NCBI GenBank assembly: GCA_964562235.1
Contig: CAZLSV010000014.1
Location: forward strand, 15,984-79,983
Source of the DNA: an uncultured Desulfatibacillum sp.
GTDB taxonomy: Bacteria; Desulfobacterota; Desulfobacteria; Desulfobacterales; SpSt-501
Direction: 5' to 3'
DNA length: 64,000 nucleotides
The notes beneath the pieces were generated by a model. It searched no databases. It was not told the origin of the DNA and saw only the letters and a list, made by a program, of their open reading frames with translations. The stretch's first letter is position 1, and each line of letters opens with the position of its first letter. Position numbers and translations under genes: made by a program. Below, in pieces: positions 8,938 through 32,725 of the stretch.

Positions 8938-8973
8938 AATACGCCTGGGCTGAAATAAAACCGAATGCCCCTT

Positions 8974-9090
8974 GTTATTGCTCCGACAAACAGGTTCAAC
9001 GTGAACCGGCGCCTGGCGGATCGGGGCGTCCGCCGCGGCGCCTCTGCGTGAGGTGCCGAATTGGCACATAATCAACCGCCGGTGTAATAG
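8974..9090. repeat. Palindromic intergenic element, copy 1 of the GTTATTGCTCCG family
   Basis: The terminal arms TTATTGCTCCG (8975-8985) and CGGTGTAATAG (9080-9090) pair with 1 mismatch and 2 G:T wobbles. Internal hairpins are GTTCA-ACG-TGAAC and GGCGGA..TCCGCC. It shares its 12-mer with 45050-45061. Confidence 0.5.
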
Positions 9091-9183
9091 CACACCCTCC
9101 CGCTGAAGACCATCCCGCCCCCGTTGCGAGGGCGGAAGCTTTTGTGATAAAGACCCCACCAGGGTCAACCGAAGGGGGCATGC

Positions 9184-10371: not shown

Positions 10372-10385
10372 GAAGGATTCGAGTC

Positions 10386-11753
10386 GTGAATTTCACGCCC
10401 CTTTTCAAACCCCGCAGCATCGCCGTTGCGGGCGTGTCGCTCGCCAACGACCGCCACCCCGCCAACGTGATCTACAACAAGATCCACCTGCGCTACCCGG
10501 TCAAGGTCTACCCGGTGAACCCGAAGGGCGGTGTTTTCAAGCGCGACCGCGTCTACCGGGGAATGGAGGAGATCCCCGGACCCGTCGATCTGGCCGTAAT
10601 CGCCGTGCGCGCCGATTTCGTGCCGGAAACGCTCGCCCAGTGCATCCGCAAGGGGGTGGGCGGCGCGGTGATCATCTCCGGCGGTTTCGCCGAAAGCGGC
10701 CGGCCGGACCTGCAGGAGCGGATCACCGCAATGGCCCGGGAGGCGGAGTTCCCTTTCATCGGGCCCAACTGCCTCGGCATCTACTCGCCGGGAAAATTCG
10801 ACACGTTTTTCCTGCCGGGCGAGCGCCTGGTGCGGCCGAACCCGGGCAGCGTGGGGTTCGTCAGCCAGAGCGGCGGCGTGCTGGTCGATCAGATGGTGAA
10901 GTTTGCCGAACAGGGACTGGGGCTCTCGCTCGCGGTCAGCATCGGCAACAAGGCCTTGATCCGTGAAACCGATCTGCTGCGCTACCTCGCCGAAGACCCG
11001 GCTACTAAGGTCATCGCCTTCTACGTGGAAGGCTTCGGCCGCGGTGAAGGGCGCACCTTTGTGGAGCTGGCGGCCGGCTGCCGAAAACCGGTGGTCGTGC
11101 TCAAGGCCGGCAAGACCCTGGAAGGCAGCCGCGCCGTGAGCAGCCACACCGCATCGCTGGCCGGCGACTACAAGGTGTTCTCCGATGTGCTCGCCCAGTA
11201 CGGCATCGTAGAGGCCCGCAACGAGTTCGAACTCACCTGCTTCTGCGAATCGCTCAACCACTACCCTCGCGCCATCGCGGGCAAGGTCGGGGTCATCACC
11301 GTGAGCGGCGGCCACGGCGCCCTGGCCACGGACATCTGCGCCGACCTGGGACTGCAAGTGCCGCGGCTTTCGGAGGCGGTCAGAGCCGAGATCCGGGCCG
11401 GCCTCTCGGCCAACGTCCGCGACATCGCCTCCCTGGAGAACCCGATCGATCTGACGGGCAGCGCCGTCGACGAGGATTTCGAAGCGGCCGTCGGCGCGCT
11501 CGGCCGGGCGCCCGAGGTGGACTGCCTGCTGCTCCTGCTGCTGCCTTACTCCCCGGGGATCAGCTCCGATCTCGGTGCCCGGCTGAGCTATGTGCACCAG
11601 CAGACCGGCAAGCCGCTGGTCGCCTATGTGCCGCACATCGAAAAATACCGGATTCTGTTCGAGGGCTTCGAACTGAACAACGTACCGGTCGCCTCCTCCA
11701 TCGACGGGGCGGTCTTCATGGTGGAAGCCATGCGGAGGTGCAGGCCATGCTGA
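10386..11753 (+). CDS. ADP-forming acetyl-CoA synthetase family, alpha subunit (CoA-binding plus succinyl-CoA-synthetase-like flavodoxin domains)
   Basis: GTG start after AGGAAGGA. Motifs are PRSIAVAGVS, GPNCLGIYSP, GFVSQSGG and the SHTASLAG phosphohistidine-loop-like motif. Confidence 0.8.
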   Translation: MNFTPLFKPRSIAVAGVSLANDRHPANVIYNKIHLRYPVKVYPVNPKGGVFKRDRVYRGMEEIPGPVDLAVIAVRADFVPETLAQCIRKGVGGAVIISGGFAESGRPDLQERITAMAREAEFPFIGPNCLGIYSPGKFDTFFLPGERLVRPNPGSVGFVSQSGGVLVDQMVKFAEQGLGLSLAVSIGNKALIRETDLLRYLAEDPATKVIAFYVEGFGRGEGRTFVELAAGCRKPVVVLKAGKTLEGSRAVSSHTASLAGDYKVFSDVLAQYGIVEARNEFELTCFCESLNHYPRAIAGKVGVITVSGGHGALATDICADLGLQVPRLSEAVRAEIRAGLSANVRDIASLENPIDLTGSAVDEDFEAAVGALGRAPEVDCLLLLLLPYSPGISSDLGARLSYVHQQTGKPLVAYVPHIEKYRILFEGFELNNVPVASSIDGAVFMVEAMRRCRPC

Positions 11754-12433
11754 GCCAGGAACTGATGAACATTGTCGATGCCGGCCGCGAACACGGATGG
11801 GTGCTGGAGCCGGAGGCCCTGCGCCTGCTGCGGGCCTCCCATGTTCCGGTCCCCCGGTTCGCATGGGCCCGGTCGAAAACCGAGGCGCTCGCCGCGGCGG
11901 CCGCCATCGGCTTCCCGGTGGTCGCCAAGGTGGTGTCCCCGCAGGTCCTGCACAAGTCCGATGTGCAGGGGGTCCAGCCCGGCGTCCCGGACCCGGAGAG
12001 CCTGGCCCGGGTCTATGACCGGTTCGGCGCGCTGCCCGGTTTTGAAGGGATGCTCGTCGCCGAAATGCTCTCGGGACACGAGCTCATCGTCGGCGCCAAG
12101 ATCGACTACCAGTTCGGACCGGTGATCCTGCTCGGGATCGGCGGCACGGCCGTCGAAATCTACAAGGACACGGTCACGCGCATGGCGCCGCTCAAGCCGC
12201 GCGACGCCGAATCCATGCTCACCTGCCTGCGGGGCAGCCGACTGCTCACGGGCCACCGGGGCTTTGCCGCCGTCAACATTCCGAAACTGACCGAGATGAT
12301 GCTCGCCTTCTCGGGTCTCGTCATGGAACTCGCCGACCGGATCGACTCCATCGACCTCAACCCCGTGTTCTGCTCTCCGGAGCGCTGCACGGTCGCCGAC
12401 GCACGGATTATCTTGGCCGATAATGCAAAGTGA
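11747..12433 (+). CDS. ADP-forming acetyl-CoA synthetase family, beta subunit (ATP-grasp domain)
   Basis: The ATG at 11747 follows GGAGG and overlaps the alpha-subunit stop (ATGCTGA). The ATP-grasp-like sequence is GFPVVAKVVSPQVLHKSDVQGV..GMLVAEM..DLNPV. Confidence 0.75.
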   Translation: MLSQELMNIVDAGREHGWVLEPEALRLLRASHVPVPRFAWARSKTEALAAAAAIGFPVVAKVVSPQVLHKSDVQGVQPGVPDPESLARVYDRFGALPGFEGMLVAEMLSGHELIVGAKIDYQFGPVILLGIGGTAVEIYKDTVTRMAPLKPRDAESMLTCLRGSRLLTGHRGFAAVNIPKLTEMMLAFSGLVMELADRIDSIDLNPVFCSPERCTVADARIILADNAK

Positions 12434-12558
12434 TGATCCAGTATTTCATGAGCGCGGAATGATGAACATGGGGAAAGGCTGATTGAGAGATAATGGACCT
12501 GCGGCGGCTCCGGAATCGACCGTACAATCTTGATGCACCCCGAAGGTTGGGGACCGTG

Positions 12559-12891
12559 TCACTCAAAAACTTTTCGAATCTGTCGTTCCAGTTCGGGGAT
12601 GTTCTTCACAATGGTTTCCCAAACCCGGTCAAGATCAATCGTGTCATATTCATGGATCAGCACATTTCTCAAACCTACGATTCCGCTCCACGGAATCTCC
12701 GGGTAGTGACCGCGAAAATCATCCGGGAGCCTATTGGCCGCCTCTCCGATCACTTCGAGACGCCGAATCACTGCATCCTGTTTTTCCGATGAAGCCATGA
12801 AGTCGGCTCTGCTCAATCCAAAAGTGTACTTTTGAATCGCCTTGATGGAGTCGTAGATATCATCGATATGCACCAAAGGGTCTTTTTTCAT
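12559..12891 (-). CDS. hepT: HepT-like (DUF86) ribonuclease toxin of a type VII toxin-antitoxin pair
   Basis: The Rx4HxY active-site motif is in GLRNVLIHEYDTIDLDRVW. The protein is 110 aa, overlaps the upstream nucleotidyltransferase gene by 4 nt, and has visibly lower GC than its neighbours. Confidence 0.85.
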   Translation of the reverse strand: MKKDPLVHIDDIYDSIKAIQKYTFGLSRADFMASSEKQDAVIRRLEVIGEAANRLPDDFRGHYPEIPWSGIVGLRNVLIHEYDTIDLDRVWETIVKNIPELERQIRKVFE

Positions 12892-13193
12892 AAGATCCGG
12901 CGGCTTTCCTTTAGAACCCGGTCTTTGAGACGAGGCTTCAAATAATCCCTTGAAACCAAGTCAACTTTAACGCCCAAGATGCTCTCTAGTTCATTTTTGA
13001 GACCCACAACATCCAACAGGCTGACATCGTCACGGTACTTGACTAAAAGGTCTAAATCGCTCAGGGAACTGGCATCTCCCCTTGCGATGGACCCAAACAC
13101 CGATGCCTCAACAACGCCGCGGTTCATTAATACGGGAACGATGCGTTGGGCGATCTCATGGATTTCGATATTCATGCCTACACCCCTATTCAA
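12888..13193 (-). CDS. mntA: MntA-like minimal nucleotidyltransferase antitoxin
   Basis: The GSxxRG..DxD motif is in FGSIARGDASSLSDLDLLV. The protein is 101 aa and sits directly upstream of, and overlapping, the HepT gene. Confidence 0.85.
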   Translation of the reverse strand: MNRGVGMNIEIHEIAQRIVPVLMNRGVVEASVFGSIARGDASSLSDLDLLVKYRDDVSLLDVVGLKNELESILGVKVDLVSRDYLKPRLKDRVLKESRRIL

Positions 13194-13255: not shown

Positions 13256-14173
13256 ATGGACAAGATGATCAAACAACCAGCCGGGGATTTTCCCAAAAAC
13301 ATCTTACCGTACCTGATTCTCAGCGTCGCCCCGCTTTGCTGGGCGGGGAACATCGTGCTGGCCCGGGGCGTGGCGGAGCTCATCCCGCCGGTGGCCTTCG
13401 CCTTCTGGCGCTGGACCCTCGCCTTCGCGCTGATCCTGCCCTTCACGCTGCGGCAGCTCGCCCGGGACCGCAGGGAGATCGGCCGGCGCTGGAAGATGAT
13501 GTTTTTACTTTCCCTCCTGGGGATATCGAGCTTCAACACGCTGCTTTACACCGCGGTCCACACCACCACCGCCATCAACGGCGCCCTGATCCAGTCCATT
13601 ATGCCCGCGGTGATCGTGCTGCTGAGCCTGATGCTCTATCGGGAAAAGATCGCATCGCGCCAGCTGGCCGGCGTGGTGCTGTGCATCCTGGGCGCCGCCC
13701 TGATCGTGCTGCGGGGGGATCTGAAGACGCTTCTGGCCATGTCCTTTGTGCAAGGCGACCTGCTCATGGTCATCGCCGTTTCGGTCTATGGGCTCTACTC
13801 CGTGCTGCTGCGCCGGCGCCCGGCCATCCACCCCTTGAGTTTTCTGACCGCCACGTTTGCCTTGGGCGCCGCCGGTCTTTTCCCGGCTTACCTGGCGGAG
13901 CTGGCCGTCACCGGCCCGTTCGCACCCGGCCGGGACATCGTATTGAGCATCCTGTACGTGGCCGTCTTCCCCTCCATCGTCGCCTATTTCTGCTGGAACA
14001 GGGGAGTGGAGCTGGTCGGCCCCAACCGGGCCGGACTCTTCATCAACCTGATCCCGGCCTTCGCCTCGCTGCTGTCCGTCGGCCTTTTGGGCGAGTCGAT
14101 CCAGCTCTATCACATCGGCGGCATGGGGCTCATCGCCGGCGGAATGGCGCTGTTTTATCTGGTCAACGCCTGA
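13256..14173 (+). CDS. DMT-superfamily (EamA-like) transporter
   Basis: About ten hydrophobic helices and a duplicated EamA-like architecture across 305 aa. Confidence 0.8.
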   Translation: MDKMIKQPAGDFPKNILPYLILSVAPLCWAGNIVLARGVAELIPPVAFAFWRWTLAFALILPFTLRQLARDRREIGRRWKMMFLLSLLGISSFNTLLYTAVHTTTAINGALIQSIMPAVIVLLSLMLYREKIASRQLAGVVLCILGAALIVLRGDLKTLLAMSFVQGDLLMVIAVSVYGLYSVLLRRRPAIHPLSFLTATFALGAAGLFPAYLAELAVTGPFAPGRDIVLSILYVAVFPSIVAYFCWNRGVELVGPNRAGLFINLIPAFASLLSVGLLGESIQLYHIGGMGLIAGGMALFYLVNA

Positions 14174-14589
14174 AGGATGCACCCGGTTCATTGACGCGAA
14201 TCGATTATACATCAACCCCATCGGACCGGCGCGAGCTGCTCCATCACAATTCAATCCCGGGAAGTAACGGTTCATTTTCGACCGAGGCCTGATTTTCAGG
14301 TCCCTACCATAATCCCCGCCGAGCAACCAATGTCGGGCCTCGCGGCCACGCGTCGACAACCGCAACATGATGGTCGTATTTACCCGCTCGCTATCCAACC
14401 GTTTTTCCATGCGATAAGCAGCATAAAATTAGCTTGCGCACGCTTACACCAACATCGAACGTTTACATAAATAGTTGTAATCGCTAACATATTTAACATT
14501 AAAGGAGAAAATAAAGATTGACTTTTTTTATGCCTCGAAAGAAAATCGCCCGGGAATTGATTATAAACCGAAACGGATGGGAGGGCAAA

Positions 14590-14961
14590 ATGAGAGCGGC
14601 GAAACTGATTCCTTCGTGTCTGCTGATCGGTGCTGCGGTGGCGTTGTTCATTTCGGGTTGCGGCGATTCGGGTGGCAGCGACATGTCCAACCTCAGCGGG
14701 GCATGGCAAGATCCTTCGACGAAGCAAAAATTTCAGATTGACTTCAGCAATAACAAAACCATCATTACTTTCGGTGACGCCATTTTACCGGCCACGATTA
14801 AACCACTCACATCGGACAGCTATTCGGTGCGTGTTTCAGACAAGGGCTCGGGGGAGAAGGAGTGGAAACTTTCCCGAGTTTGGGACGACAAGAAAAAATC
14901 CTTCACGCTGAAACTCGAGCACGACAGCGCGACATCCAATTTAGAGCGCGTAAAGATTTAA
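14590..14961 (+). CDS. Small lipoprotein of unknown function
   Basis: The ATG at 14590 gives MRAAKLIPSCLLIGAAVALFISGCGDSGG, which contains the lipobox ISGC. The gene is lower in GC. No recognisable domain. Confidence 0.5.
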   Translation: MRAAKLIPSCLLIGAAVALFISGCGDSGGSDMSNLSGAWQDPSTKQKFQIDFSNNKTIITFGDAILPATIKPLTSDSYSVRVSDKGSGEKEWKLSRVWDDKKKSFTLKLEHDSATSNLERVKI

Positions 14962-14996
14962 CCCTCCGAGTGCCTGTCACACCTCAAACCAAAATC

Positions 14997-15027
14997 AAGG
15001 ACCGGGTCGACAAGCTCGGTCCTTTTT
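14997..15027 (+). terminator. Rho-independent terminator candidate downstream of the lipoprotein gene
   Basis: Stem AAGGACCG (14997-15004) pairs with CGGTCCTT (15017-15024) around a 12-nt loop. A T-run follows (CCTTTTTCC). Confidence 0.5.
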
Positions 15028-15227
15028 CCTCGCCCGTTCGCCATTGCGGCTGCGTCCATCCCATGAAACGCATTCGGAATTAGACCCGCCCCCCGACACC
15101 GCCGGACGCCCGTGGTGTCATATGAAACCCTGCGTCTTCCGCGCTGGTGACCCCGCTGGTAACCCATGGATAAGGGCGGCGTCGCCGCCGGCACGCCTTG
15201 ATAGGAAGGCGGCCTCGAGCGAACGTT

Positions 15228-16241
15228 TCAAGGCGGCTGCGCCAGGAACGTCGCGAGGCCTTCTACCAGCGCGGCCATGAAGCGGAAGTCGAGGGTTTCC
15301 ATCCTGTCGGTGGGCAGGTGGTAGTGGGGGTTGCGAAAGAAGGCGGAGTCCGTGATCATCACGGCCTGGAATCCCTGGTCCCAGAACGAGGCGTGGTCGC
15401 TCAAACGCACGGCCGGCATGATCCAGCCGTTGAAGGGCACGGTCAGTTTGACAACCGCCAGGTCCGGGTTTTTCTGGAAACTGTCGGAGATGCTCCCGGC
15501 CAGAGCGCGCGAAGCGAAGTTGCCCACGATCCCGATGAAATCGCCCTCCTTGGGGTAGCCGAAAAACATCAGCGGAAACGGGTAGGACTGGCAGCCCGGT
15601 TCGCGGCAGGTGTAGCCGACCATCTCCAGGCACAGCATGGCGTCGATGCGTTCGTTCCGCCGCCGGGCCTGCCTCGCGTAGACCCGGCTTCCCATGAACC
15701 GCGTGCCGTAGGCCGGCGGCTCTTCGAGGGCAAAGGAGACGAACACGACGGACAAACCGAGATTCTTGTCGCGGCTCAACGCCGCTATCTGCCGCGCGGT
15801 TTCAAGCTGCACGGCCACGGCGCTGGCGTTGTCGTCGGCGCCGACGGTGCCGGCGACCGAGTCGTAGTGGGCACCGATCAGGATCCGCCGGGCGGGGCTG
15901 GGGCCGAAACGGACCTCGGCGACGACATTGGCAACCTCGAAGCCTTGACAGTCATAATGCTCCAGGCGCGCCTCGATCCCGTTCCCCTTGTAGAAATCCC
16001 GGATGTACTCCGCCGTCTTGGTGAGGTTGCCCGGAACCCGGACGCTGCGCTCTCCGATCTCTACCGTAAGCGCCCGGAGGTGGTTTCTCAACCGGGCTTC
16101 CGTTGCGGGAATGTCGACCATCGCCGCCGCTCCCCAAGCGCGTGTGTCCCCGGCATGCAGGCTACCGGCCTCGATGTCCGGCAGGACAAATCGGCCCAGC
16201 GCAAACGCCAGGCATGCAATCATGTAGACCCTAATGCGCAT
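15228..16241 (-). CDS. M28-family metallopeptidase (aminopeptidase)
   Basis: Signal-like N-terminus. M28-type metal-ligand contexts are IGAHYDSV, GADDNASAVA and SFALEEPP. There is a late SDHASF motif. Confidence 0.75.
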   Translation of the reverse strand: MRIRVYMIACLAFALGRFVLPDIEAGSLHAGDTRAWGAAAMVDIPATEARLRNHLRALTVEIGERSVRVPGNLTKTAEYIRDFYKGNGIEARLEHYDCQGFEVANVVAEVRFGPSPARRILIGAHYDSVAGTVGADDNASAVAVQLETARQIAALSRDKNLGLSVVFVSFALEEPPAYGTRFMGSRVYARQARRRNERIDAMLCLEMVGYTCREPGCQSYPFPLMFFGYPKEGDFIGIVGNFASRALAGSISDSFQKNPDLAVVKLTVPFNGWIMPAVRLSDHASFWDQGFQAVMITDSAFFRNPHYHLPTDRMETLDFRFMAALVEGLATFLAQPP

Positions 16242-21184: not shown

Positions 21185-21366
21185 GAAGGCCCTCCTGGAG
21201 GTATTCTCACCATGACCGAATTTTGAAGTATTCTACGCATCCCTGCCACGGCGTCAACCCGAAATTTCAAAGCGGCCCCGCCGGGGCCGTTTTGAAATTG
21301 AACGCCCGCGGATTTCGTGGTAGGCCCGTTTCACAGAACCCATCGCGTCGGCAACGGAGACACGTC

Positions 21367-22575
21367 ATGACCGAGCCCCCACGGCCGGAAAATTCCGATG
21401 CACCCGCCGGCCGCCTCGCCGTGACGATCGCCGCCAGCATCGTCTGCCGCACCGCGCTCAACACGGCGCGCCGGTTCACCTACCCTTTTGCGCCCGACCT
21501 CAGCCGGACGCTGGGCGTCCCCCTCACCTCCATCACGGCCCTGATCGCGGTGAACTGGGCGACCAACCTGCTCGGGATGGTGACCGGCCCTTTGGCCGAC
21601 CGCTTCGGCTACCGGGGGATGATGCTGATCGGCATGGGAATGCTCGCGGCCGGGATGATGATGGGCGGGCTGTTTCCCCTCTTCGGCGTCCTCATCGTAG
21701 CCCAGTTCTTGAGCGGTCTCGGCAAAAGCCTCTTCGATCCGGCCCTGCAGGCCTATGTCGGCGCCCGCGTTCCCTACCAACGCCGGGGCCTGGTCGTCGG
21801 TCTCCTGGAAACGGCCTGGGCCGCCAGCACCCTGGTCGGCATCCCCGCCATGGCGTTTCTGATCGACCGCGCCGGATGGCGCGCGGCCTTCCTGGCGCTC
21901 GGCGTCTGCGGCCTGGCGGGGCTCTGGATGGTGAAAGCGGTGATCCCGGCCAAACGGCGGCTGGCCTCGCCGTCGCATGCCGGGCCCGATCTCGGCCGCC
22001 GTCTGCGGGAAGTCCTTGGCCACCGGGCGGCCCTGGGGGTGGCCGGTTACACGTTTCTATTCAACCTCGCCATGGACAACCTGTTCGTGGTCTACGGGGT
22101 CTGGCTGGAAGAGGCCTTTCAGCTGAGCCTGTTGGCGGTCGGGCTGAGCACCGGCGTCATCGGTGCGGCGGAACTGGCCGGGGAGTTTCTCACGGCGGGA
22201 CTCGCGGACCGGGTCGGGCTGAAACGGGCCGCCGTCGGCGGGGTCGCATTTTGCACCCTGACCTACGGGGTGCTGCCGTTCGCGGCCACCACCGCCCACC
22301 TCGCTCTGGGGGTGCTGTTTGTGCACTTCTGCATTTTCGAAATGACCATAGTGACCATACTGTCGCTGACCACGGAGCTCCTCCCGCAGTCGCGTGCGAC
22401 CATGATCGCAACCTATTATGCCGCGGCCGGGCTCGGCCGCGTGGCCGGGGCGCTGTTGGGGGGCCCGGTCTGGCTTGCGTCCGGAATTGTTGGAACCGGC
22501 GTCACGTCGGCCGCCATCTCGGCGCTCTCCTTAGCCTTCCTGCTGTGGGGGTTGAGCGGCTGGCGCAAGGGCTGA
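21367..22575 (+). CDS. MFS transporter
   Basis: The ATG at 21367 removes a basic alternate-frame leader. There are about 12 hydrophobic helices, and the MFS loop motif is GPLADRFGYRGMM. Confidence 0.75.
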   Translation: MTEPPRPENSDAPAGRLAVTIAASIVCRTALNTARRFTYPFAPDLSRTLGVPLTSITALIAVNWATNLLGMVTGPLADRFGYRGMMLIGMGMLAAGMMMGGLFPLFGVLIVAQFLSGLGKSLFDPALQAYVGARVPYQRRGLVVGLLETAWAASTLVGIPAMAFLIDRAGWRAAFLALGVCGLAGLWMVKAVIPAKRRLASPSHAGPDLGRRLREVLGHRAALGVAGYTFLFNLAMDNLFVVYGVWLEEAFQLSLLAVGLSTGVIGAAELAGEFLTAGLADRVGLKRAAVGGVAFCTLTYGVLPFAATTAHLALGVLFVHFCIFEMTIVTILSLTTELLPQSRATMIATYYAAAGLGRVAGALLGGPVWLASGIVGTGVTSAAISALSLAFLLWGLSGWRKG

Positions 22576-23730
22576 TCCGCGGACCTCGGCCGGCCGCTTG
22601 CCTAAGTATCCCTTGAGGGTTTCCAGCACCAGCAGGGACTGCATCTCCTCCCGGCTCAGCCCTTCCCAATAGCTCTCGGACCAGAAGGCCTCCGGCAGGT
22701 GCTTGCGCGCACCGCCGTTCAGCTTCTCCCCACGCGCGGCCAGGTGCCGTCGGTAGGATTTCATTTCCTCCCGCATCGCGGCGTCCGAAAGCCCGGCAAT
22801 TTTCCGGCAATCCTCCTCCAACGTCTGCACGGCGGGCAGACGCGGGGATTCCAGGACTTCCTTGAACGCCCGCGCGAACCGCTCCAGACCCTGGTGGATG
22901 TGCTCGTTCTGGACCATGTTGATGTTGGACCAGCCGGCCCTGAGCCATTTGAAATTGGCGATGCGCACCCGCCCGGCGTCCGGCCCCGCCTCGGTGTAGA
23001 CGGAGAGCCCGGCCGAGTCGTACATGTAGGACTTGACCCACCCGAGGCCCGTGACGTTCAGGCCCGCCTCCCCGGAATAGAAGTAAGTCCAGTCGTCGTC
23101 GTTTCCGATGATGTAGCCCTTGCGGCCGACATCCGACACGTCGGCCTGCCTGGAAATCGAGATCACGGTCCGGCGCGACCCGCTGGTGAGAACAATGAGC
23201 GTCCGGTAAAGGCCGTAGCGGTAGTAGCCCCCGGTGGAGAGGTCCGGCGTGTTTTCAACCGTTTCGACCCCGCGGATCACCACCGGGGAGTCTTCCGCGC
23301 CGAACAGCTCCCACAGCCGCGGAAGCTGCGGCCATGGCTTTTCGGTCTGCTGCCAGGAAGTGCTTCGCAGCGAAGCCGGGCTGGTGGCAAACCAGGGAAT
23401 CGCCGGGTTGAAGGAATATTTCAGCACGTCGACCAGCCGTGCGCGCACGTCCGCCTCGTAGTAGCTGGATGAAAACCCGTGGGCGGATCCGGCCGAAAAA
23501 ATCTCACCGTCCTTCTTGTTCCGGGCGACGAAGTCCATGAGCCCCGCAATGAGCTCCGGCTGAAATTTTGCCCCGTTGCCGGAGCCGACCAGGCTCAGCA
23601 GGTGCTCGGTCCCGGATAACAACTCGGGTGGAAGGAGCTTGTCGTCCGCGGCCCGGCTGCCGGCCGGGAACAGAACAAAACAGACCGAAAATAAAACCAG
23701 GGTCTGCAGATGGTGGATCAACTTTTTCAT
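22531..23730 (-). CDS. Exported protein of unknown function
   Basis: The ATG at 23730 gives the signal-like MKKLIHHLQTLVLFSVCFVLFPAGSRAADD. I recognise no motif. Its 3' end overlaps the convergent MFS gene by 45 nt. Confidence 0.5.
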   Translation of the reverse strand: MKKLIHHLQTLVLFSVCFVLFPAGSRAADDKLLPPELLSGTEHLLSLVGSGNGAKFQPELIAGLMDFVARNKKDGEIFSAGSAHGFSSSYYEADVRARLVDVLKYSFNPAIPWFATSPASLRSTSWQQTEKPWPQLPRLWELFGAEDSPVVIRGVETVENTPDLSTGGYYRYGLYRTLIVLTSGSRRTVISISRQADVSDVGRKGYIIGNDDDWTYFYSGEAGLNVTGLGWVKSYMYDSAGLSVYTEAGPDAGRVRIANFKWLRAGWSNINMVQNEHIHQGLERFARAFKEVLESPRLPAVQTLEEDCRKIAGLSDAAMREEMKSYRRHLAARGEKLNGGARKHLPEAFWSESYWEGLSREEMQSLLVLETLKGYLGKRPAEVRGSALAPAAQPPQQEG

Positions 23731-23840
23731 GGCGTCTGTCCTTTTGATGGAGGGCCAAATAATAGACACCCCTGCGGCCTTTCGCAAGCGGGGTCGTCAT
23801 GTTTGCAAAACCCCTCCCACGGGATTACCTTAGCACCCAA

Positions 23841-26800
23841 ATGAAAAACGACACGATTCGGATATCCGGCGCCCGCCAGCACAACCTGAAGAACCTGAAC
23901 CTGGAGATCCCGCTCAACCAGATCACCGTCGTGACCGGGGTCAGCGGCTCGGGGAAATCGTCGCTGGCCTTCGACACCCTTTACGCCGAGGGCCAGCGCC
24001 GCTACATCGAAACCTTCTCGCCCTACGCCCGCCAGTTCATGGACCGCATGGACCGGCCGCACGTCGACAGGATCGAGGGCATCCCGCCCGCCATCGCCAT
24101 CGACAGCAAGGACCCGGTGCGCACGTCGCGTTCCACCGTGGGCACCATGACCGAGATCACGGACTACGTGAAGCTGCTCTACGCGCGCCTCGGCCGGCTG
24201 CACTGCCGCTCCTGCGGCCAGCCGGTCGAGCCCGAGACGCCCGAGCACGTCTGGCGACGGCTGCAGGGCCTGCCGGAGGGCTCGCCGGTCGTGCTCACGT
24301 TCCCTTACCCGTTGAACGGCGCCGGCGCCGAGGAGCTGCGCGGGGCGCTCATGCCGCTCGGGTTCGACCGCCTGTACCGGAACGATCGGGTCGTCTCCAT
24401 CGAGGAGTGGCGGCCGCAGGGCGAGGAGCGGGAGGTCGCCGTCGTGGCCGACCGGCTGCGCTTCCGGCCGAAGGAACGAAAGCGGGTGCTCGACTCGGTC
24501 GAACTCGCGTTTCGCTTCGGGGCCGGCCGCCTCGATGTGTGGGTGCCGCCGCACGGCCGCCACGCCTTCAGCAGCAAGCTGGAGTGCGCGGCCTGCCGGG
24601 TCGCCTACAGCACCCCGCTGCCGAGCCTCTTTTCCTTCAACAGCCCCCTCGGCGCCTGCGACACCTGCCGCGGGTTCGGCCGCACCATCGGGATCGACCT
24701 GGATCTGATCATCCCCGACCGGGCGCGCTCGCTGGCGGAGGGGGCCATCAAGCCCTTCGGGGGGCGGCCGGAGGGCCGACCCGAGTTCGAGGACCTGACC
24801 CAATTCTGCCGGAAGCGCAACATCCCCCTGGACAGGCCTTTTGAAAAACTCTCGGCCGCCCAGCAGCGGTCCCTCGTGGCAGGGACCTCTTCCTACTACG
24901 GGATCGAGGGCTACTTCCGCTGGCTTGAAAACCGCACCTACAAGATGCACGTGCGCGTGCTCCTGTCGCGCTACCGCAGCTACGACATCTGCCCCGCCTG
25001 CAACGGCACGCGCTTCAAGCCGGACACCCTGCTCTACCGCCTGGGAGATTTCACCATCGCCCAGGTCTATGCCCTGAACGTCAACCAGGCGATCGATTTC
25101 TTCAACCGCCTGCCGGTCTCCGAAACCGACGAGGCCGGGTGCATGCTCCGCGATGAAGTCCGCAGCCGGCTCACCTACCTGCGCGACGTGGGCCTGGGCT
25201 ACCTCACCCTGGACCGGCAGTCCCGCACCCTGTCGGGCGGCGAAGTCCAGCGCGTCGCCCTGACCTCGGCCCTGGGTTCCTCCCTGGTCAACACCCTTTA
25301 CGTGCTGGACGAGCCTAGCATCGGGCTGCACCCCCGCGACAACCACCGCCTCGTGCGCATCCTGAAAGGGCTGCGGGACCTGGCGAACACGGTCGTGGTC
25401 GTGGAGCACGACCCGGAGATCATCCGCGAGAGTGATTTCATCCTGGACCTCGGGCCCAAGGCCGGCGCGGAAGGCGGCCGGCTGATGTACTTCGGGCCCA
25501 CCGCGCAGATCAACGGGTCGCTGACCGGCCAGTACCTGCGCGGGGCGCGCCGGATCCCGCTGCCCGCCCGGCGGCGGGCGCCGGACGGGCGCTGGCTGAC
25601 CCTCCGGGGCGCGGCCGAAAACAATCTCAAAGGCATCGACGTCGCCATCCCGCTGGGGCTGCTGGTCGGCCTCACGGGGGTGTCCGGCTCGGGCAAGTCC
25701 ACCCTCGCGGAAGAGATCCTCTTCAAGGCGGCCCGGCGCGCGCTCGGCCAGCCCGAGGGGAGGCCCGGCCAGCACCGTGCGATCGAGGGCATCGAGCACA
25801 TCGACGAAGTGCTGCTGGTGGACCAGCGCGCCATCGGGCGCACGCCCCGGGCCAACCCGCTCACCTACACCAAGGCCTTCGATCCCATCCGCAAGCTCCT
25901 GGCGGCCACCGAGGACGCCCGCCGGCGCGACTTCGGTCCGGGCCATTTTTCCTTCAACGTCGCCGGCGGGCGCTGCGAGACCTGCCGGGGCGAAGGGTTC
26001 GAGAAGGTGGAGATGCAGTTCCTGTCGGACGTCTATCTCCCCTGCCCGGAATGCAACGGCCGCCGGTTCCGGCCGGAGGTGCTGGAGGTCGCCTACCGGG
26101 GCAAGAGCGTCACCGACATCCTCGAACTGACGGTGGACCAGGCCATCGGGTTCTTCGGCGGCGAGAAAGCCGTGGTCTCGGCCCTGCAGCCGCTCAGCGA
26201 GGTGGGACTGGGCTACATCCGACTTGGCCAGCCCATCAGCACCCTCTCCGGCGGCGAGGCCCAGCGGCTCAAGCTCTCCCGCTACCTGCGCTCCGACGAC
26301 GGCAGCGGACGGCGCAAGCTGTTTATCTTCGACGAGCCCACCACCGGCCTGCATTTCGAGGACATCCACACACTGCTGGTCTGCCTCCAGCGCCTGGTCG
26401 ACGCCGGGCACACGGCGCTCGTGATCGAGCACAACATGGACGTGGTCAAGACGGCCGACTGGGTCATCGACCTGGGGCCGGAAGGGGGCGAGGCCGGCGG
26501 GGAGGTCGTGGCGGTCGGCCCGCCGGAGCGGGTCGCCGCCGACGGGCGCTCGCACACGGGCCGTTTCCTCGCGGCCTATCTCAACGGCCGGGGCCGTCTC
26601 AAGCCGGCGGTTTCTGCCGACGACCGGGTGGCCGAACCCGCCGCGGGCTACCACGCCCGGCCGGCGGCGCGGGTGATCGAGCTGAAGGGCGCCCGCGAGC
26701 ACAACCTCCAGGACCTCCACCTGACCCTGCCGCACAACGAACTCGTCGTGCTGACCGGGGTTTCCGGCTCCGGCAAATCCACCCTGGCCTTCGACATCCT

Positions 26801-29192
26801 TTTCGCCGAGGGCCAGCGCCGCTACCTGGAGAGCCTGGCGCCCTACGTCCGCCAGTACATGAAAGTCCTGGAGCGGCCGGATGTGGACCTCGTGACCGGG
26901 CTTTCGCCGACGGTGGCCATCGAACAGCGCATCAGCCACGCCAGCCGGCGTTCCACCGTGGCCACCCTGACCGAAATCTACCATTTCCTGCGCCTGCTCT
27001 ACAGCAAGCTCGGCACCCAGCACTGCCCGGGCTGCGGCCGGCCGCTGGCCGCCCAGACCCGGGCCGCCATCGTCGAGCAGGTCCGCGGCCGCTACGGCCG
27101 CCGCCCGGCCCGCGTGCTGGCCCTCAAGGTGCTGGGCCGCAAGGGCTTCCACAAGGAGCTCCTGGAACGCGCCGTGAAGAAGGGCTTCCGCGAGGCGCGC
27201 ATCGACGGCACGCTCACGCGGCTGACGCCGGGCATGGCCCTTTCGCGCTACCACGAGCACACCATCGAACTGGTCACCGGAAGGCTTCCGGCCGAAGACC
27301 TCGAGGGCCTCATTGCCGGCAGCCTGGAGGAGGGCGACGGCCACATCAGCGTCATCGACGGCCGCGGCCGCGAGGAAGTCTTCAGCCGGCACGGCATCTG
27401 TCCGGGTTGCGGCATCGGTCTGGAGCCGCTCGACCCGCGGCTGTTTTCCTTCAACAGCCGGCAGGGCGCCTGCCCGGCCTGCAAGGGGCTCGGCGTAAGT
27501 GTCGACGAGGAGGAGGAAGCGGCCGCAGCGCCCCTGGTGTGCCCCACCTGCGGCGGCAGCCGGCTCAAGCCCCAGGCCCTGGCGGTCCGCATCGGCGGCC
27601 GCTCCATTTGGGAGCTGATGCAGCAGCCCGCCGGCGACGTGCAGGCGGTCATTCGCGGCTTCCGGTTCCCCGTTCACCAGAAGCCCGTGGCCGAGCCCGT
27701 GGTCTCCGAGATCCTGACCCGCCTGACCCTCCTGAACCAGCTGGGGCTCTCCTACCTGTCGCTCGGCCGCAGCGGCAACACGCTTTCCGGCGGCGAGGCC
27801 CAGCGCGTGCGCCTGGCCGCCCAGCTGGGCTCCAACCTCACCGGCGTGTGCTACATCCTGGACGAGCCCACCATCGGCCTGCACCCCCGGGACAACCACG
27901 TCCTCGTGGAGGCTTTGAAGACGCTGCGCGATCGCGGCAACACCATCATCGTCGTCGAACACGACGAGGAGACCATCCGGGCGGCCGACACCATCATCGA
28001 CCTCGGCCCCGGCGCCGGCCGCGACGGCGGGAAGGTCGTGGCCTCCGGCACCCTGGCCGAGATCCGGCGCGCGCCGCTGTCCATGACCGGCGCCCTGATC
28101 GACGGCCACGACCACCGCATCACCTCGCGGCTGCGGCCCTGGCGGGGCGAACCGGCGATCCGCGTGTCGGGGGCCTGCGCCAACAACCTGCGGGGGATCG
28201 ACGTGGACTTTCCCCTGGGCCGCCTAATCGCCGTCACCGGGGTCTCCGGGTCCGGCAAATCCTCGCTGCTCAAGGAAACCCTCTTCAAGGGCCTGCGGAA
28301 CCGGCTCTCCGACCGCCGCGAACCGGCCGGGGCGTGCCGGGAGATCAGCGGGTGGAAGACCGTCGGCCGCGTCCTGGAGGTGGACCACAGCCCCATCGGC
28401 CGCACGCCGCGCTCGGTGCCTACGTCCTACATCGGCTTTCTGGACGACATCCGCCGGCTGTTCGCCATGACGCCCGCCGCTCGCGCCCGCGGCTACCGGC
28501 CCGGCCGCTTCTCCTTCAATGTCTCCGGCGGCCGCTGCGAGGCCTGCCAGGGCCAGGGCCGCCCCAAAGTCGAAATGAGCTTCCTGCCGGACGTCTATGT
28601 GCCCTGCGAAGTCTGCGACGGCCGGCGCTTCAACCCCGAAACCCTGGAGGTACTCTACAAAGGCAAGACCATCTCCGACGTGCTGGCCATGACGTTCGCC
28701 GAGGCCGTGGTGTTCTTCGGCGCCGTTCCGCTCATCCGCCGGGCGGTCCAGTTCGTGTGCGACGTGGGTCTGGGCTATCTCACCCTGGGCCAGCCGAGCC
28801 CGACGCTCTCCGGCGGCGAGGCCCAGCGCATCAAGCTGGCCGAACAGCTGGCGAAACCTTCCAGCGGGCACACCGTCTACATCCTGGACGAACCCACGAC
28901 CGGCCTGCACCTGGCCGATGTCCGCCGCCTGATCGACGTTCTTCAGGCGCTGGTGGAAGCCGGCCACACGGTGGCCGTGATCGAGCACAACCTGGAAATC
29001 ATCGCGGAGGCCGACTACATCATCGACCTGGGGCCGGAAGGCGGGTCCGCCGGCGGGCGGCTGGTAGCCTCCGGTTCGCCCCGGGAGCTTCTGAAATTCG
29101 CTCGGACCTCGCACACGGCGCGCTGCCTCAAGGAGTACCTGTCGGAAAAGAGAAAAGTGATGAGTCAGAGTAATGAGTCAAGAGTTCAATGA
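23841..29192 (+). CDS. Tandemly duplicated (double) UvrA-family ABC ATPase, about 1783 aa
   Basis: There are two complete UvrA-like modules. Each opens with ..G(A)[19 protein letters not shown](S/T)LAFD.L(Y/F)AEGQRRY.E(T/S).. (module 1 near 23860, module 2 near 26680). Each carries CxxC zinc modules, two LSGGE signature motifs and Walker B LDEP(S/T). There are four ABC nucleotide-binding domains in total. Confidence 0.85.
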
Positions 29193-29314
29193 AAAATGAT
29201 GGGTTTACATCAGCGGATCGTGTGCACTGCTCACAGGGGTCCAATGGTTTGCTTTTCCCCGACTCTTCAGGCTATTCCCTTCACTCATAACTCATCACTC
29301 ATAACTCATCACTT
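29155..29314. repeat. MITE-like inverted repeat with TGAGT/ACTCAT heptamer sub-repeats
   Basis: The left arm AAGTGATGAGTCAGAGTAATGAGTCAAGAG (29155-29184) lies inside the last codons of the uvrA-like ORF. The right arm CACTCATAACTCATCACTCATAACTCATCACTT (29282-29314) contains a 14-nt unit about 2.3 times. By eye the arms match about 26/31 as reverse complements. Confidence 0.7.
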
Positions 29315-29333
29315 AAAAAAGAGGCTTGGCTCC

Positions 29334-30155
29334 ATGAAATCGCTCACGATCGCCGCGGTCCAGTTCGCGCCCCGGTTCGGGGAAAAGGACGAGAACTTCC
29401 GCCGGATGGAAGCGCTGACCGCCGATGTGCGGGCGGACCTCATCGTCTTCCCGGAATTGTGCACGACGGGCTACTTTTTCACGTCGCGGGAGGAGGTGGC
29501 GGAGGTCGCCGAAGCGGCCCGCGGCGCAACGGGGGAGTTCTTCCGCGCCATGGCCCGGCGTCACGACGCCGTCGTGGTGGCCGGCTTTGCCGAAGCCGAC
29601 CGGGGGCGGCTTTTCAACTCCTGTCTGGTCGTCGTTCCGGAGCGCAAGAAGGCCTTCGTCTATCGCAAGACCCACCTGTTCTGCAAGGAGAAGCTGTGCT
29701 TCGATGCCGGGGACACGGGCTTTTTCGTGGTCCCCGACGCCCGGCGGGAGGTGCGCATCGGGCCGATGGTGTGCTACGACTGGCGCTTCCCCGAATCCGC
29801 GCGGGTGCTGGCGCTTCTGGGGGCCGATCTCATCGTCTGCCCGGCCAACCTGGTCACCGAGGCCTGGCACCTGGTCATGCCGGCGCGGGCGATCGAAAAC
29901 AAGCTCTACCTGGCCCTGGCCAACCGCGTCGGCACCGAAGCCCGGGAGGGCGAAGAGTTGACGTTCAAGGGCCGGTCCGTCATCTACGACTGGAGCGGCA
30001 AACCCCTGGCGCAGGCGGGCGACCGGGGGGAGGCCGTCGTCACCGCCGCCATCCGGCCGTCCGAGACCCGCGACAAGTCCTTCAACCCCATCAACGATGT
30101 TCTGCGTGATCGCCGGCCGGAGCATTACGGACCGATCACCGCGAGGGATCGATGA
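29334..30155 (+). CDS. Carbon-nitrogen hydrolase (nitrilase superfamily)
   Basis: ATG at 29334. The E-K-C triad contexts are VFPELCTTGY, YRKTHLF and MVCYDWRFPE. Confidence 0.8.
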   Translation: MKSLTIAAVQFAPRFGEKDENFRRMEALTADVRADLIVFPELCTTGYFFTSREEVAEVAEAARGATGEFFRAMARRHDAVVVAGFAEADRGRLFNSCLVVVPERKKAFVYRKTHLFCKEKLCFDAGDTGFFVVPDARREVRIGPMVCYDWRFPESARVLALLGADLIVCPANLVTEAWHLVMPARAIENKLYLALANRVGTEAREGEELTFKGRSVIYDWSGKPLAQAGDRGEAVVTAAIRPSETRDKSFNPINDVLRDRRPEHYGPITARDR

Positions 30156-30316: not shown

Positions 30317-32725
30317 ATGCCCAAGCGCCTGGAACTCAAGCCGTCCGAACTCCGCCGCGTTTGCAACCCCTCCCAGTTCGCCTTCAAGGACACCTCGGAG
30401 CTGGCCTCTCTGGACCTGGTGATCGGGCAGGAGCGCGCGGTGCACGCCATCGAATTCGGATTGGACATGCGCAGCCCCGGCTACAACATCTTCGTCACCG
30501 GCGCCGAGGGCACCGGCAAGTCCACCATCGTCAGGGACCTCACCGCGCGCTTCGCGAAAACCCAGCCGGTTCCGGACGACTGGTGTCTCGTGAACAATTT
30601 CAGCGATGAATTCCGGCCGCGCGCGGTCGCGCTGCCGCCCGGCCGCGGGCCCTCCTTCGCCAAGAAGATCAACCGGCTCGTGAACGACCTGAAAAAGGAG
30701 ATCCCCAAGGCCTTTGAGACCGAGGCCTACCTGAAAAAGCTCGCCGCCGTCAAATCCCGTTTCAGCTCCCGGCAGCAGAGCATTTTTCAGAAGATCGAAC
30801 GCTTCGCCACCGAGCGCAGCCTGCACATCGACTCCTCCCAGAAGGAGTTCCCCGTCGTGCCCGTCGTCGAGGGCAAGATCCTCTCCGCGGAGGACTACCA
30901 GAAACTGCCCGACGGCGTTAAGGCGGAGATCGACGAAAAAGTCGCTCAGATCCAGGCGGAGATGGAAAGGTCCGGCCGCAAGATCGAAAAACTCAGCCAG
31001 CAGCTGCACACCGACATCGAGCGGCTCATGAGCGAGGCCGTTCTGGCCCCGGTGCAGAAACGTGTCGATCCGCTCCGGGCGGATTTCAAGGAGCGCGGCG
31101 AGGTCCGCGACTATCTGAACGCCCTGCAGGCGGACATCGTCGAAAACTTCGCCTCGTTCATGCCGGCCGAAAAAGGCGAACCGCCCGCCGCCGGCGAGTG
31201 CCCCCAGCCGGCGAAAGCCCCTTTCCAGAAATACCAGGTCAACGTGCTGGTGCACCGCGAGGTGATGAAGGGGGCGCCGGTCATCTACGAGACCAACCCG
31301 ACCTTCTTCAACGTGGTCGGCCGCATCGAGAAGCGCGCTTACATGGGCACGGTGAACACCGACTTCACCCTGGTGCTGGCGGGCTCGCTGCTCAACGCCA
31401 ACGGCGGCTGCCTGATCATGGAGATCGAGCCGCTGTTGATGCACCCCTACGTCTGGGAGGCGCTCAAGCGATCGCTGCAGACCAAGCGCCTGGACATCGA
31501 GGACGTGCCCGAGGAGTCGGCCTTCGGCACCACCTCGCTGCGGCCGCAGCCGATCCCGCTCGAAGTCAAGGTCATTCTGCTGGGCAGCTACGAAGCCTTC
31601 GAAATGCTTCAGAACTACGACTCCAAGTTCAACAAGATTTTCAAGGTCCGGGCCGACTTCGACCAGGAAGTGGCGCGCACGCCCGAAACCGAGCAGCTTT
31701 ACGCCCGGTTCATCGCGCGCGTCTGCCGGGAGGAAAACCTGCTGCCGTTCAACCCGCGCGGCGTGGCCGCCATCGTGGAGTTCGGTGAAAAGTACGTCTC
31801 CGACCAGAACAAGCTCTCGATCCGCTTCGGGCCCCTGCTGGGGGTCCTGAAGGAGTCCGATTACTGGGCGCGGCGCCAGCGCGCGAAGGTGACCTCCGAA
31901 AAACACGTGGTGCGCGCCTTCCAGGAGCACCGCTTCCGCTACAGCCTTTACGAACAGAAGGTCCACGAGTCCTACCGGGACGGCTCCATCATGATCGACG
32001 TCACCGGGGCGGTGGCCGGTCAGATCAACGGCCTGGCCGTTTATCAGATCGGCGAATACTCCTTCGGCCGTCCGGCGCGCATCACGGCCGAGACCTTCAT
32101 GGGCAAAGGGGGAGTGGTCAACATCGAGCGCGAGGCGGACCTGAGCGGCAGCACGCACGACAAGGGGGTGCTGATCCTCTCGGGTTATCTCGGGAGTGTC
32201 TTTGCCCAGCACCACCCGCTCAGCCTGGCGATCAGCATCACTTTCGAGCAGAGCTACAGCGACATCGACGGCGACAGCGCCTCTTCCACCGAGCTTTACG
32301 CCATTCTCTCCAGTCTCTCCGGCATCCCGATCCGGCAGGGCATCGCCGTCACGGGTTCGGTCAATCAGAAGGGCCGGGTCCAGGCGATCGGCGGCGTCAA
32401 CCAGAAAGTCGAAGGTTTCTTCGAGGTCTGCCGGGAGAAGGGCTTGACGGGCGAGCAGGGAGTGATCATTCCTATCGCTAACGTTCAGAACCTGATGCTG
32501 CGCAAGGACGTGGTCGATGCCGTCCGGAAAAAGAAGTTCCATGTCTACCGGGTGTCGCGCGTGGAGGAAGGCATCGAGATTCTGACCGGTGTGCGGGCGG
32601 GCCGCCCGGACGCCGAGGGCCTCTACCCGCCGGGGACGGTTTTCGGGGAGGTCCAGAAAAAATTGAAAGCTTACATCGACCGTGCCCGGCGGGCCAAGGC
32701 TGAGGCGGGCGAGGACACGGAATAA
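30317..32725 (+). CDS. Lon-related ATP-dependent protease (AAA+ plus S16 protease domain; COG1067/YcbZ-like)
   Basis: Walker A is VTGAEGTGKST. The C-terminal S16 domain carries the Ser-Lys dyad contexts DGDSASSTELYAILSSL and GGVNQKVEGFF. Confidence 0.85.
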   Translation: MPKRLELKPSELRRVCNPSQFAFKDTSELASLDLVIGQERAVHAIEFGLDMRSPGYNIFVTGAEGTGKSTIVRDLTARFAKTQPVPDDWCLVNNFSDEFRPRAVALPPGRGPSFAKKINRLVNDLKKEIPKAFETEAYLKKLAAVKSRFSSRQQSIFQKIERFATERSLHIDSSQKEFPVVPVVEGKILSAEDYQKLPDGVKAEIDEKVAQIQAEMERSGRKIEKLSQQLHTDIERLMSEAVLAPVQKRVDPLRADFKERGEVRDYLNALQADIVENFASFMPAEKGEPPAAGECPQPAKAPFQKYQVNVLVHREVMKGAPVIYETNPTFFNVVGRIEKRAYMGTVNTDFTLVLAGSLLNANGGCLIMEIEPLLMHPYVWEALKRSLQTKRLDIEDVPEESAFGTTSLRPQPIPLEVKVILLGSYEAFEMLQNYDSKFNKIFKVRADFDQEVARTPETEQLYARFIARVCREENLLPFNPRGVAAIVEFGEKYVSDQNKLSIRFGPLLGVLKESDYWARRQRAKVTSEKHVVRAFQEHRFRYSLYEQKVHESYRDGSIMIDVTGAVAGQINGLAVYQIGEYSFGRPARITAETFMGKGGVVNIEREADLSGSTHDKGVLILSGYLGSVFAQHHPLSLAISITFEQSYSDIDGDSASSTELYAILSSLSGIPIRQGIAVTGSVNQKGRVQAIGGVNQKVEGFFEVCREKGLTGEQGVIIPIANVQNLMLRKDVVDAVRKKKFHVYRVSRVEEGIEILTGVRAGRPDAEGLYPPGTVFGEVQKKLKAYIDRARRAKAEAGEDTE

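Follow-up and report, generated by a model that had tools for sequence, protein, structure and literature searches.

What would a bacterium gain from a UvrA in which two protein units are covalently joined in one chain, and which parts of the damage sensor would such a chain still need twice? The question is raised by a 64,000-nucleotide stretch of contig CAZLSV010000014.1 (assembly GCA_964562235.1; hereafter the window) from an uncultured Desulfatibacillum sp., in which a single gene on the forward strand, the double uvrA, encodes 1783 amino acids (aa) followed by a stop codon. Judged from its sequence, the product is one polypeptide made of two complete UvrA units with intact catalytic motifs, and it is a member of a large and old family of fused UvrAs. 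A sequence-only reading of the window had described an open reading frame (ORF) of about 1780 aa holding two complete UvrA units, with the junction at about 26600-26700; each half does align with full-length UvrA, and the linker falls at the expected position. The extent of the gene and its parts is as follows.

23841..29192 (+): double uvrA, complete gene (N-termini of homologues; NF001503 2111 bits vs cutoff 1147)
23850..26582 (+): unit 1 (U1), aa 4-914 (end-to-end alignment with 2r6f; positions 2-941 of 948 of the UvrA hidden Markov model, HMM)
26583..26675 (+): inter-unit linker, about 31 aa, aa 915-945 (gap between the HMM matches of the two units)
26676..29156 (+): unit 2 (U2), aa 946-1772 (3pih residues 4-287 and 382-915; HMM positions 4-287 and 401-946)

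Counted from its first ATG, the ORF would run from 23799 to 29192 (+; 1797 aa), but this upstream in-frame ATG is probably not the real start; the start at 23841 is favoured because the N-termini of close homologues match it. Both profile and structure comparisons place the two halves within UvrA. The whole protein exceeds the cutoff not only of the NCBIfam UvrA equivalog NF001503 but also of TIGR00630 (2058 bits vs 729.8), and on TIGR00630 each unit passes alone (U1 1020, U2 1044 bits), while on NF001503 the single units stay just under the cutoff (1051 and 1067 bits). Over their full extent, the first 933 aa align with residues 22-963 of Bacillus stearothermophilus UvrA (2r6f; E = 9e-266), and the last 850 aa align with Thermotoga maritima UvrA (3pih) in two blocks that leave out the insertion domain, so that the half-by-half alignment proposed in the sequence-only reading gives a UvrA on either side of the linker. 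The best relatives of the whole protein among solved structures are all UvrA. AlphaFold2 (AF2) models of the halves reached a predicted local distance difference test score (pLDDT) of 78 for U1 and 72 for U2, and the best Foldseek match in the PDB was for both models 3uwx_A, the UvrA chain of a UvrA-UvrB complex (TMq 0.76 for U1 and 0.81 for U2), with class II UvrA structures ranking under class I for both halves. The possibility that the second half is not UvrA-like thus falls away on its TIGR00630 score and its fold match alike.

The catalytic and accessory parts can be assigned individually. Unit 1 has the full, class-I-like domain set, with both nucleotide-binding domains (NBDs), three zinc modules (Zn1 to Zn3), the UvrB-binding domain and the insertion domain; unit 2 has both NBDs, three zinc modules and the UvrB-binding domain, and is without the insertion domain.

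23937..23960 (+): Walker A of unit 1 NBD-I, GVSGSGKS, aa 33-40 (motif; lysine in 86/86 of the family)
25677..25700 (+): Walker A of unit 1 NBD-II, GVSGSGKS, aa 613-620 (motif)
26757..26780 (+): Walker A of unit 2 NBD-I, GVSGSGKS, aa 973-980 (motif)
28239..28262 (+): Walker A of unit 2 NBD-II, GVSGSGKS, aa 1467-1474 (motif)
24216..24584 (+): unit 1 UvrB-binding domain, 123 aa, aa 126-248 (between CRSC(122) and CAAC(249) of Zn1; PF17760)
24669..24989 (+): unit 1 insertion (DNA-binding) domain, 107 aa, aa 277-383 (between CDTC(273) and CPAC(384) of Zn2; PF17755; 2r6f alignment)
27036..27398 (+): unit 2 UvrB-binding domain, 121 aa, aa 1066-1186 (between CPGC(1062) and CPGC(1187); PF17760)
27483..27539 (+): remnant of the unit 2 insertion domain, 19 aa (between CPAC(1211) and CPTC(1234))

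A pattern check of the 1783-aa protein found the LSGGE signature, the DEP Walker B motif and the H-loop four times each, besides these Walker A motifs, and all of the four nucleotide-binding domains that had been proposed are intact in each of these respects. Twelve CxxC motifs make up six complete zinc modules, three per unit and at the expected positions, with 24/24 zinc cysteines aligned in most homologues. The one-sided difference between the units, previously given as a segment of roughly 110 aa kept in the first and a spacing of only about 20 aa in the second, is likewise borne out, at 107 and 19 aa.

The fusion is real and widespread. At the 90% identity level, at least 120 protein clusters of 1767-1805 aa match the protein with 99% query coverage and 71-99% identity, a further listed match among these close clusters being a shorter fragment of 1632 aa; where named, they are annotated 'excinuclease ABC subunit UvrA' and come from metagenome-assembled genomes (MAGs) of Desulfobacterales or Desulfobacteraceae. 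At least 586 stretches in species-representative genomes of many phyla match a 200-aa junction query from end to end. The best 80 of these loci include Desulfobacteria, Burkholderiales, other Beta- and Gammaproteobacteria, Syntrophales and Bdellovibrionales as well as many Verrucomicrobiota, Planctomycetota, Chlamydiales, Nitrospinota and Kiritimatiellia, and most of them have an uninterrupted ORF of 1750-2460 aa across the junction (52/80 are complete). The homologues likewise have a linker, with 27-77 residues in the slightly wider interval that corresponds to aa 905-945 of the window protein (41 aa). An exhaustive HMMER search with aa 584-1783 as the query showed that the 150 best clusters at 50% identity are almost all long proteins, mostly of 1550-1960 aa. 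Because the nucleotide sequences of the two halves agree at only 66-72%, collapse or expansion of a repeat during assembly is excluded, and with a continuous frame, a conserved linker and a junction found in hundreds of independent assemblies, a sequencing or assembly artefact or a mis-joined gene pair has a negligible probability.

The view that tandem UvrAs form a minor class therefore does not hold, given almost exclusively long proteins among the best clusters and junction-spanning stretches in many phyla. Fused UvrAs are common and are routinely annotated as UvrA by pipelines, and the architecture as such is not new; Goosen and Moolenaar, writing in DNA Repair in 2008, reportedly listed tandem-duplicated UvrAs as a separate class. 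Full-text literature searches for tandem, fused, double or class III UvrA returned nothing relevant, and since no paper in the searchable literature is on such proteins, the family appears to be experimentally uncharacterised.

To place the fusion in time, we compared the units over 674 core columns in which both accessory domains were masked. U1 and U2 of the window protein are 50.1% identical to each other in this core, and they are 53-56% (U1) and 53-55% (U2) identical to the UvrAs of E. coli, Bacillus and Thermotoga, which, coming from three phyla, are 63-69% identical among themselves. Because the halves are about as far from each other as each is from these canonical proteins, the fusion is read as old, and a recent duplication is ruled out by the low identity of the halves in both the core and the DNA. 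When 321 units were placed in a neighbour-joining tree with three canonical outgroups only, U1 of the window fell in a pure U1 clade (88 units) and U2 in a pure U2 clade (86 units), which hold the same 86 proteins; a clade of 70 or more U1s and nothing else was recovered in 90/100 bootstrap replicates, its U2 counterpart in 58/100. The U1s and U2s of these 86 proteins thus appear as parallel clades, which suggests one shared fusion whose halves have co-diverged since, and because the two clades hold the same proteins, the fusion probably predates the spread of the family over Desulfobacteria, Verrucomicrobiota, Proteobacteria and Nitrospinota. The phylogeny of the two halves, which the sequence-only reading had proposed as a check, accordingly points to an old fusion.

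Four planctomycete doubles (L054, L063, L072 and L080; 2167-2441 aa) fall outside this 86-member family. They carry full insertion domains in both units as well as several hundred extra residues, and their U1 is the double unit nearest to canonical UvrA, with 63.7% core identity to E. coli.

How general the unequal layout is was assessed in 159 complete doubles, a sample biased toward relatives of the window protein, which were split into units with the UvrA HMM and in which both accessory domains were measured. In our code, B or b denotes the presence or absence of the UvrB-binding domain and I or i that of the insertion domain, a domain needing at least 90 aa to count as present. The layout of the window, BI-Bi, is the commonest (85/159), and in HMM coordinates its UvrB-binding and insertion domains measure 128 and 101 residues in U1 and 126 and 13 residues in U2. 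It is followed by BI-BI with 36/159 and by bI-bI, a double class II of about 1600 aa, with 21/159, whereas an insertion-less unit comes first (Bi-BI) in only 5/159; a few others make up the rest. The asymmetric combination of a full and an insertion-less unit is clearly common and not peculiar to the window. The bI-bI doubles (P0199, P0252, P0254, P0261 and others, about 1590-1680 aa) have no UvrB-binding domain in either unit and a 138-residue Zn2 spacing, and P0168, P0222 and P0161 are listed among the alternative tandem layouts, either double class II or reversed Bi-BI.

Within the 86-member family, the parts of the protein are retained to very different degrees. At every one of the four sites, 85-86 of the 86 members have the Walker A lysine; the signatures and H-loops are conserved as well, and so are the Walker B motifs with the exception of one. 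The UvrB-binding domain is found in U1 of 86/86 and in U2 of 85/86 members, hence in 171/172 units, and that neither UvrB dock was given up speaks for a protein working together with UvrB (or Mfd). Each unit also has the YARQF tyrosine, and we equate it with the wedge residue Y62 of Clostridium thermocellum UvrA, which is required for ATP-dependent UvrB loading (PMC12796330). The insertion domain, by contrast, is kept in all 86 U1s and is shorter than 90 aa in 76/86 U2s, with a median of 32 aa and a length of 13-20 aa in Desulfobacteria; 75/86 of these closest relatives have the BI-Bi layout. The other ten members, whose U2 insertion domain is full, are dispersed over the tree; since Fitch parsimony requires at least seven state changes, the pattern is most simply read as repeated and independent loss, always in unit 2.

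A variation of another kind concerns the Walker B motif of U2 NBD-II (aa 1679-1685 of the window protein, where it reads LDEP), which has EEP in place of DEP in 27/86 members; this ATPase site may be drifting in part of the family.

The accessory domains that are present have moved away from their canonical counterparts, and not in the same way in both units. On PF17760 (UvrA_inter, the UvrB-binding domain; cutoff 23.3) E. coli UvrA scores 132 bits, U1 36.4 and U2 49.5; on PF17755 (UvrA_DNA-bind) E. coli UvrA reaches 134.9 bits over the full length, U1 47.8 bits over profile positions 1-65 of 110 only, and U2 has no match. The AF2 model has a pLDDT of 81-92 over the UvrB-binding domain of unit 1. 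When conservation of this domain was judged against the columns that are invariant in canonical UvrA, the family consensus of U2 was seen to keep the canonical LAPlv..RKG.h, whereas the consensus of U1 has lost the LAPIv..KKG motif. Because U2 keeps these motifs, U1 has lost them, and only U1 has a clamp, the sequences indicate that the asymmetry runs both ways, with the clamp on U1 and the more canonical UvrB dock on U2.

This combination can be set against the UvrAs that have been characterised. Each unit resembles canonical class I UvrAs (E. coli; 2r6f/3uwx; 3pih; C. thermocellum 9gxk) in domain order, in its two ATPase sites, three zinc modules, wedge tyrosine and UvrB-binding domain, and in aligning over the full length with a TIGR00630 score above the cutoff. 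In the class I homodimer, formed by chains of about 940 aa, two insertion domains clamp the DNA and each UvrB contacts both protomers (PMC12796330); the 1783-aa protein, in contrast, has covalently joined and non-identical units (50% core identity), one insertion domain per pseudo-dimer, and accessory domains that are much more diverged. Unit 2 appears as a natural equivalent of the engineered insertion-domain deletions (E. coli delta290-400; B. stearothermophilus delta-ID), with a short loop closing Zn2; while such mutants are without both clamps of the dimer, the fused family always keeps a clamp in the partner unit. E. coli UvrA delta290-400 retains incision on short substrates and transcription-coupled repair, and loses its damage specificity when undamaged DNA competes (PMC3025350). 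That one insertion domain could suffice would fit this behaviour.

Two other kinds of UvrA invite comparison. The long chlamydial UvrA (NF001885 / PRK00635, a model of 1809 positions) is likewise of about 1800 aa and annotated as excinuclease ABC subunit A; its second half belongs to another lineage that has diverged further, and we rejected an assignment of the window protein to this equivalog, as its score of 1282 bits is well under the cutoff (3054) and its best stretch covers model positions 1-1082 only. Class II UvrAs (Deinococcus radiodurans UvrA2, 2vf7; DrrC; Ecm16, 7sh1) are similar in being UvrA paralogs whose set of accessory domains is altered and whose biological role is unclear or outside nucleotide excision repair (NER). 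They have no Zn1 and no UvrB-binding domain and keep the insertion domain (PMC3167621, PMC9328131), and the characterised members act without UvrB (PMC9328131). Unit 2 is the opposite case, with the UvrB-binding domain kept and the insertion domain gone, and membership of class II was rejected for the window protein on the presence of Zn1 and the UvrB-binding domain in both units.

We suggest, as a reasonably likely account, that the protein works as an intramolecular pseudo-dimer, equivalent to the UvrA2 homodimer, which senses damage and loads UvrB with a single DNA clamp; the fold-back geometry, the UvrB loading and the role in NER are what we infer from the parts described above. In such a scenario, the two units would fold back on each other, head to head as in the canonical homodimer, and a single chain would then hold four ATPase sites, the wedge tyrosine, C-terminal zinc hairpin and UvrB dock in two copies each, and one clamp. 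The protein would scan DNA, ATP binding and hydrolysis would test the deformability of the DNA, and a lesion would be passed to UvrB, as by the UvrA2 homodimer. The fusion would fix the stoichiometry and allow the halves to specialise, unit 1 providing the clamp and the damage-discrimination element and unit 2 the more canonical UvrB dock. The constant retention of one clamp, both UvrB docks and four ATPase sites would fit a sensor that hands lesions to UvrB.

Several of our observations weigh against this account and should be considered together with the alternative that they partly favour, namely that the protein is an accessory UvrA paralog acting outside general NER, beside a canonical uvrA, on special lesions or DNA-bound compounds. 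The class II UvrAs DrrC and Ecm16 act on intercalating drugs, and an MFS efflux-type transporter lies upstream of the double uvrA in the window. Both units are further from canonical UvrAs than cross-phylum canonical orthologs are from one another, as an accessory paralog might well look, and the accessory domains appear strongly diverged, to judge by the weak Pfam scores of the UvrB-binding domains and of the U1 insertion domain; to this are added the scores of the single units just under the NF001503 cutoff, the patchy spread of the family across many phyla, and at least two relatives (L006 and L029) with a further UvrA-like gene within 10 kb. No gene neighbor recurs in more than 10 of the 45 family loci and the window shares none of them, the tree offers moderate support, and the structure predictions, covering the two halves singly, leave the pairing of U1 with U2 to inference. 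The lack of shared neighbors cuts in the other direction too, in that the MFS gene is not conserved at related loci. The UvrB-independent class II proteins (PMC9328131), moreover, lack the very domain that both units have here and that is found in 171/172 units of the family. The long UvrA of the Chlamydiae, although that protein is of a distinct lineage, shows that a double can be the sensor in NER. It is, to our knowledge, the only UvrA of those genomes. An accessory role is the main alternative, and we hold it with limited confidence.

A different objection concerns the geometry. The units could pair between chains, either as U1:U1 and U2:U2 or as U1:U2 in trans; eight ATPase sites would then come together in one assembly, or the units would form beads on a string that bridge two DNA sites. 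The linker of about 31 aa is flexible and permits either this or the folded-back arrangement. However, the one-sided loss of the insertion domain from U2 is simplest to understand if U1 and U2 are partners sharing one DNA-binding groove, and a U2:U2 pair would be without any clamp, which makes pairing between chains improbable. Going beyond the folded-back pseudo-dimer itself, we speculate that the double UvrA could be the only UvrA of the organism and an obligate asymmetric covalent heterodimer, whose one clamp and two non-equivalent UvrB docks would allow polarised UvrB loading or strand choice; this bolder version should be taken as tentative.

The surroundings of the gene add little to these scenarios. 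Upstream of it lie the major facilitator superfamily (MFS) transporter already mentioned (21223-22575, +) and, divergently oriented, a 399-aa ORF (22531-23730, -) with no match to a Pfam or NCBIfam family and a GC content at third codon positions (GC3) of 0.81, a value for the longer ORF 22531-23787. Downstream, a nitrilase-superfamily hydrolase (29196-30155, +) begins 4 nt past the uvrA stop and is followed by a Lon-like protease (30317-32725, +). Because neighbors are not conserved at related loci, we treat the transporter, the hydrolase and the protease as unrelated to the double uvrA. Neither uvrB nor uvrC nor a second uvrA was found within the 64-kb window, in line with the earlier remark that uvrB and uvrC are not adjacent. 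Near the gene, a sigma-70 promoter scan gave two weak consensus matches, neither positioned to drive uvrA, terminator-like sites were not commoner than in shuffled sequence, and no tRNA genes or Rfam matches were seen. The GC content of the double uvrA (window 24001-28000) is 0.70, with a GC3 of 0.91, as compared to 0.57-0.66 over most of the window; the minimum of 0.57-0.58 lies in the 12-16 kb region.

The further UvrA-like genes of the two relatives differ from each other. In L029, a Verrucomicrobiota MAG, a third UvrA-like ORF (13654-15999, +) directly downstream of the double (7196-13063) matches residues 1-284 and 406-902 of E. coli UvrA, the insertion domain being missing here as well, so that three UvrA units stand in a row. 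In L006, a Chthoniobacterales MAG, the additional UvrA-like gene (6-1442, -) is divergently oriented, at some 6 kb upstream of the double, and extends beyond the end of the locus; its identity to residues 4-471 of E. coli UvrA is 45.6%, and it has both the UvrB-binding and the insertion domain, from which it follows that at least some genomes with a double have another UvrA-like gene.

Elsewhere in the window, two overlapping adjacent ORFs of 586 and 891 aa (5258-7018, -, and 7015-9690, -) have weak matches to dynamin-family GTPases and look like tandem bacterial dynamin-like proteins. Apart from the double UvrA, the window has a single soluble twin-ABC ATPase, an ABC-F type protein (54659-56341, +; two ABC_tran domains and ABC_tran_Xtn).

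UvrA is usually studied as a symmetric homodimer, in which it is hard to tell what each ATPase site (of four), each clamp (of two) and each UvrB dock (of two) contributes. A natural UvrA that is fused and asymmetric makes every one of these sites individually mutable in one chain, and the family that offers it is widespread, being present in Desulfobacterota, Verrucomicrobiota, Proteobacteria, Planctomycetota and other phyla. If the double UvrA were indeed the only UvrA of its organism and an obligate heterodimer, the repeated one-sided loss of the clamp would show, by a natural example, that the symmetric UvrA2 homodimer needs no more than one insertion domain. What this study adds is the comparative result, which suggests that the second insertion domain is dispensable and has been lost repeatedly while the docks and ATPase sites were retained. 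It can be read as an evolutionary statement on the parts that are needed twice: four ATPase sites and both UvrB docks are kept, and the second insertion domain was apparently lost often, the first never.

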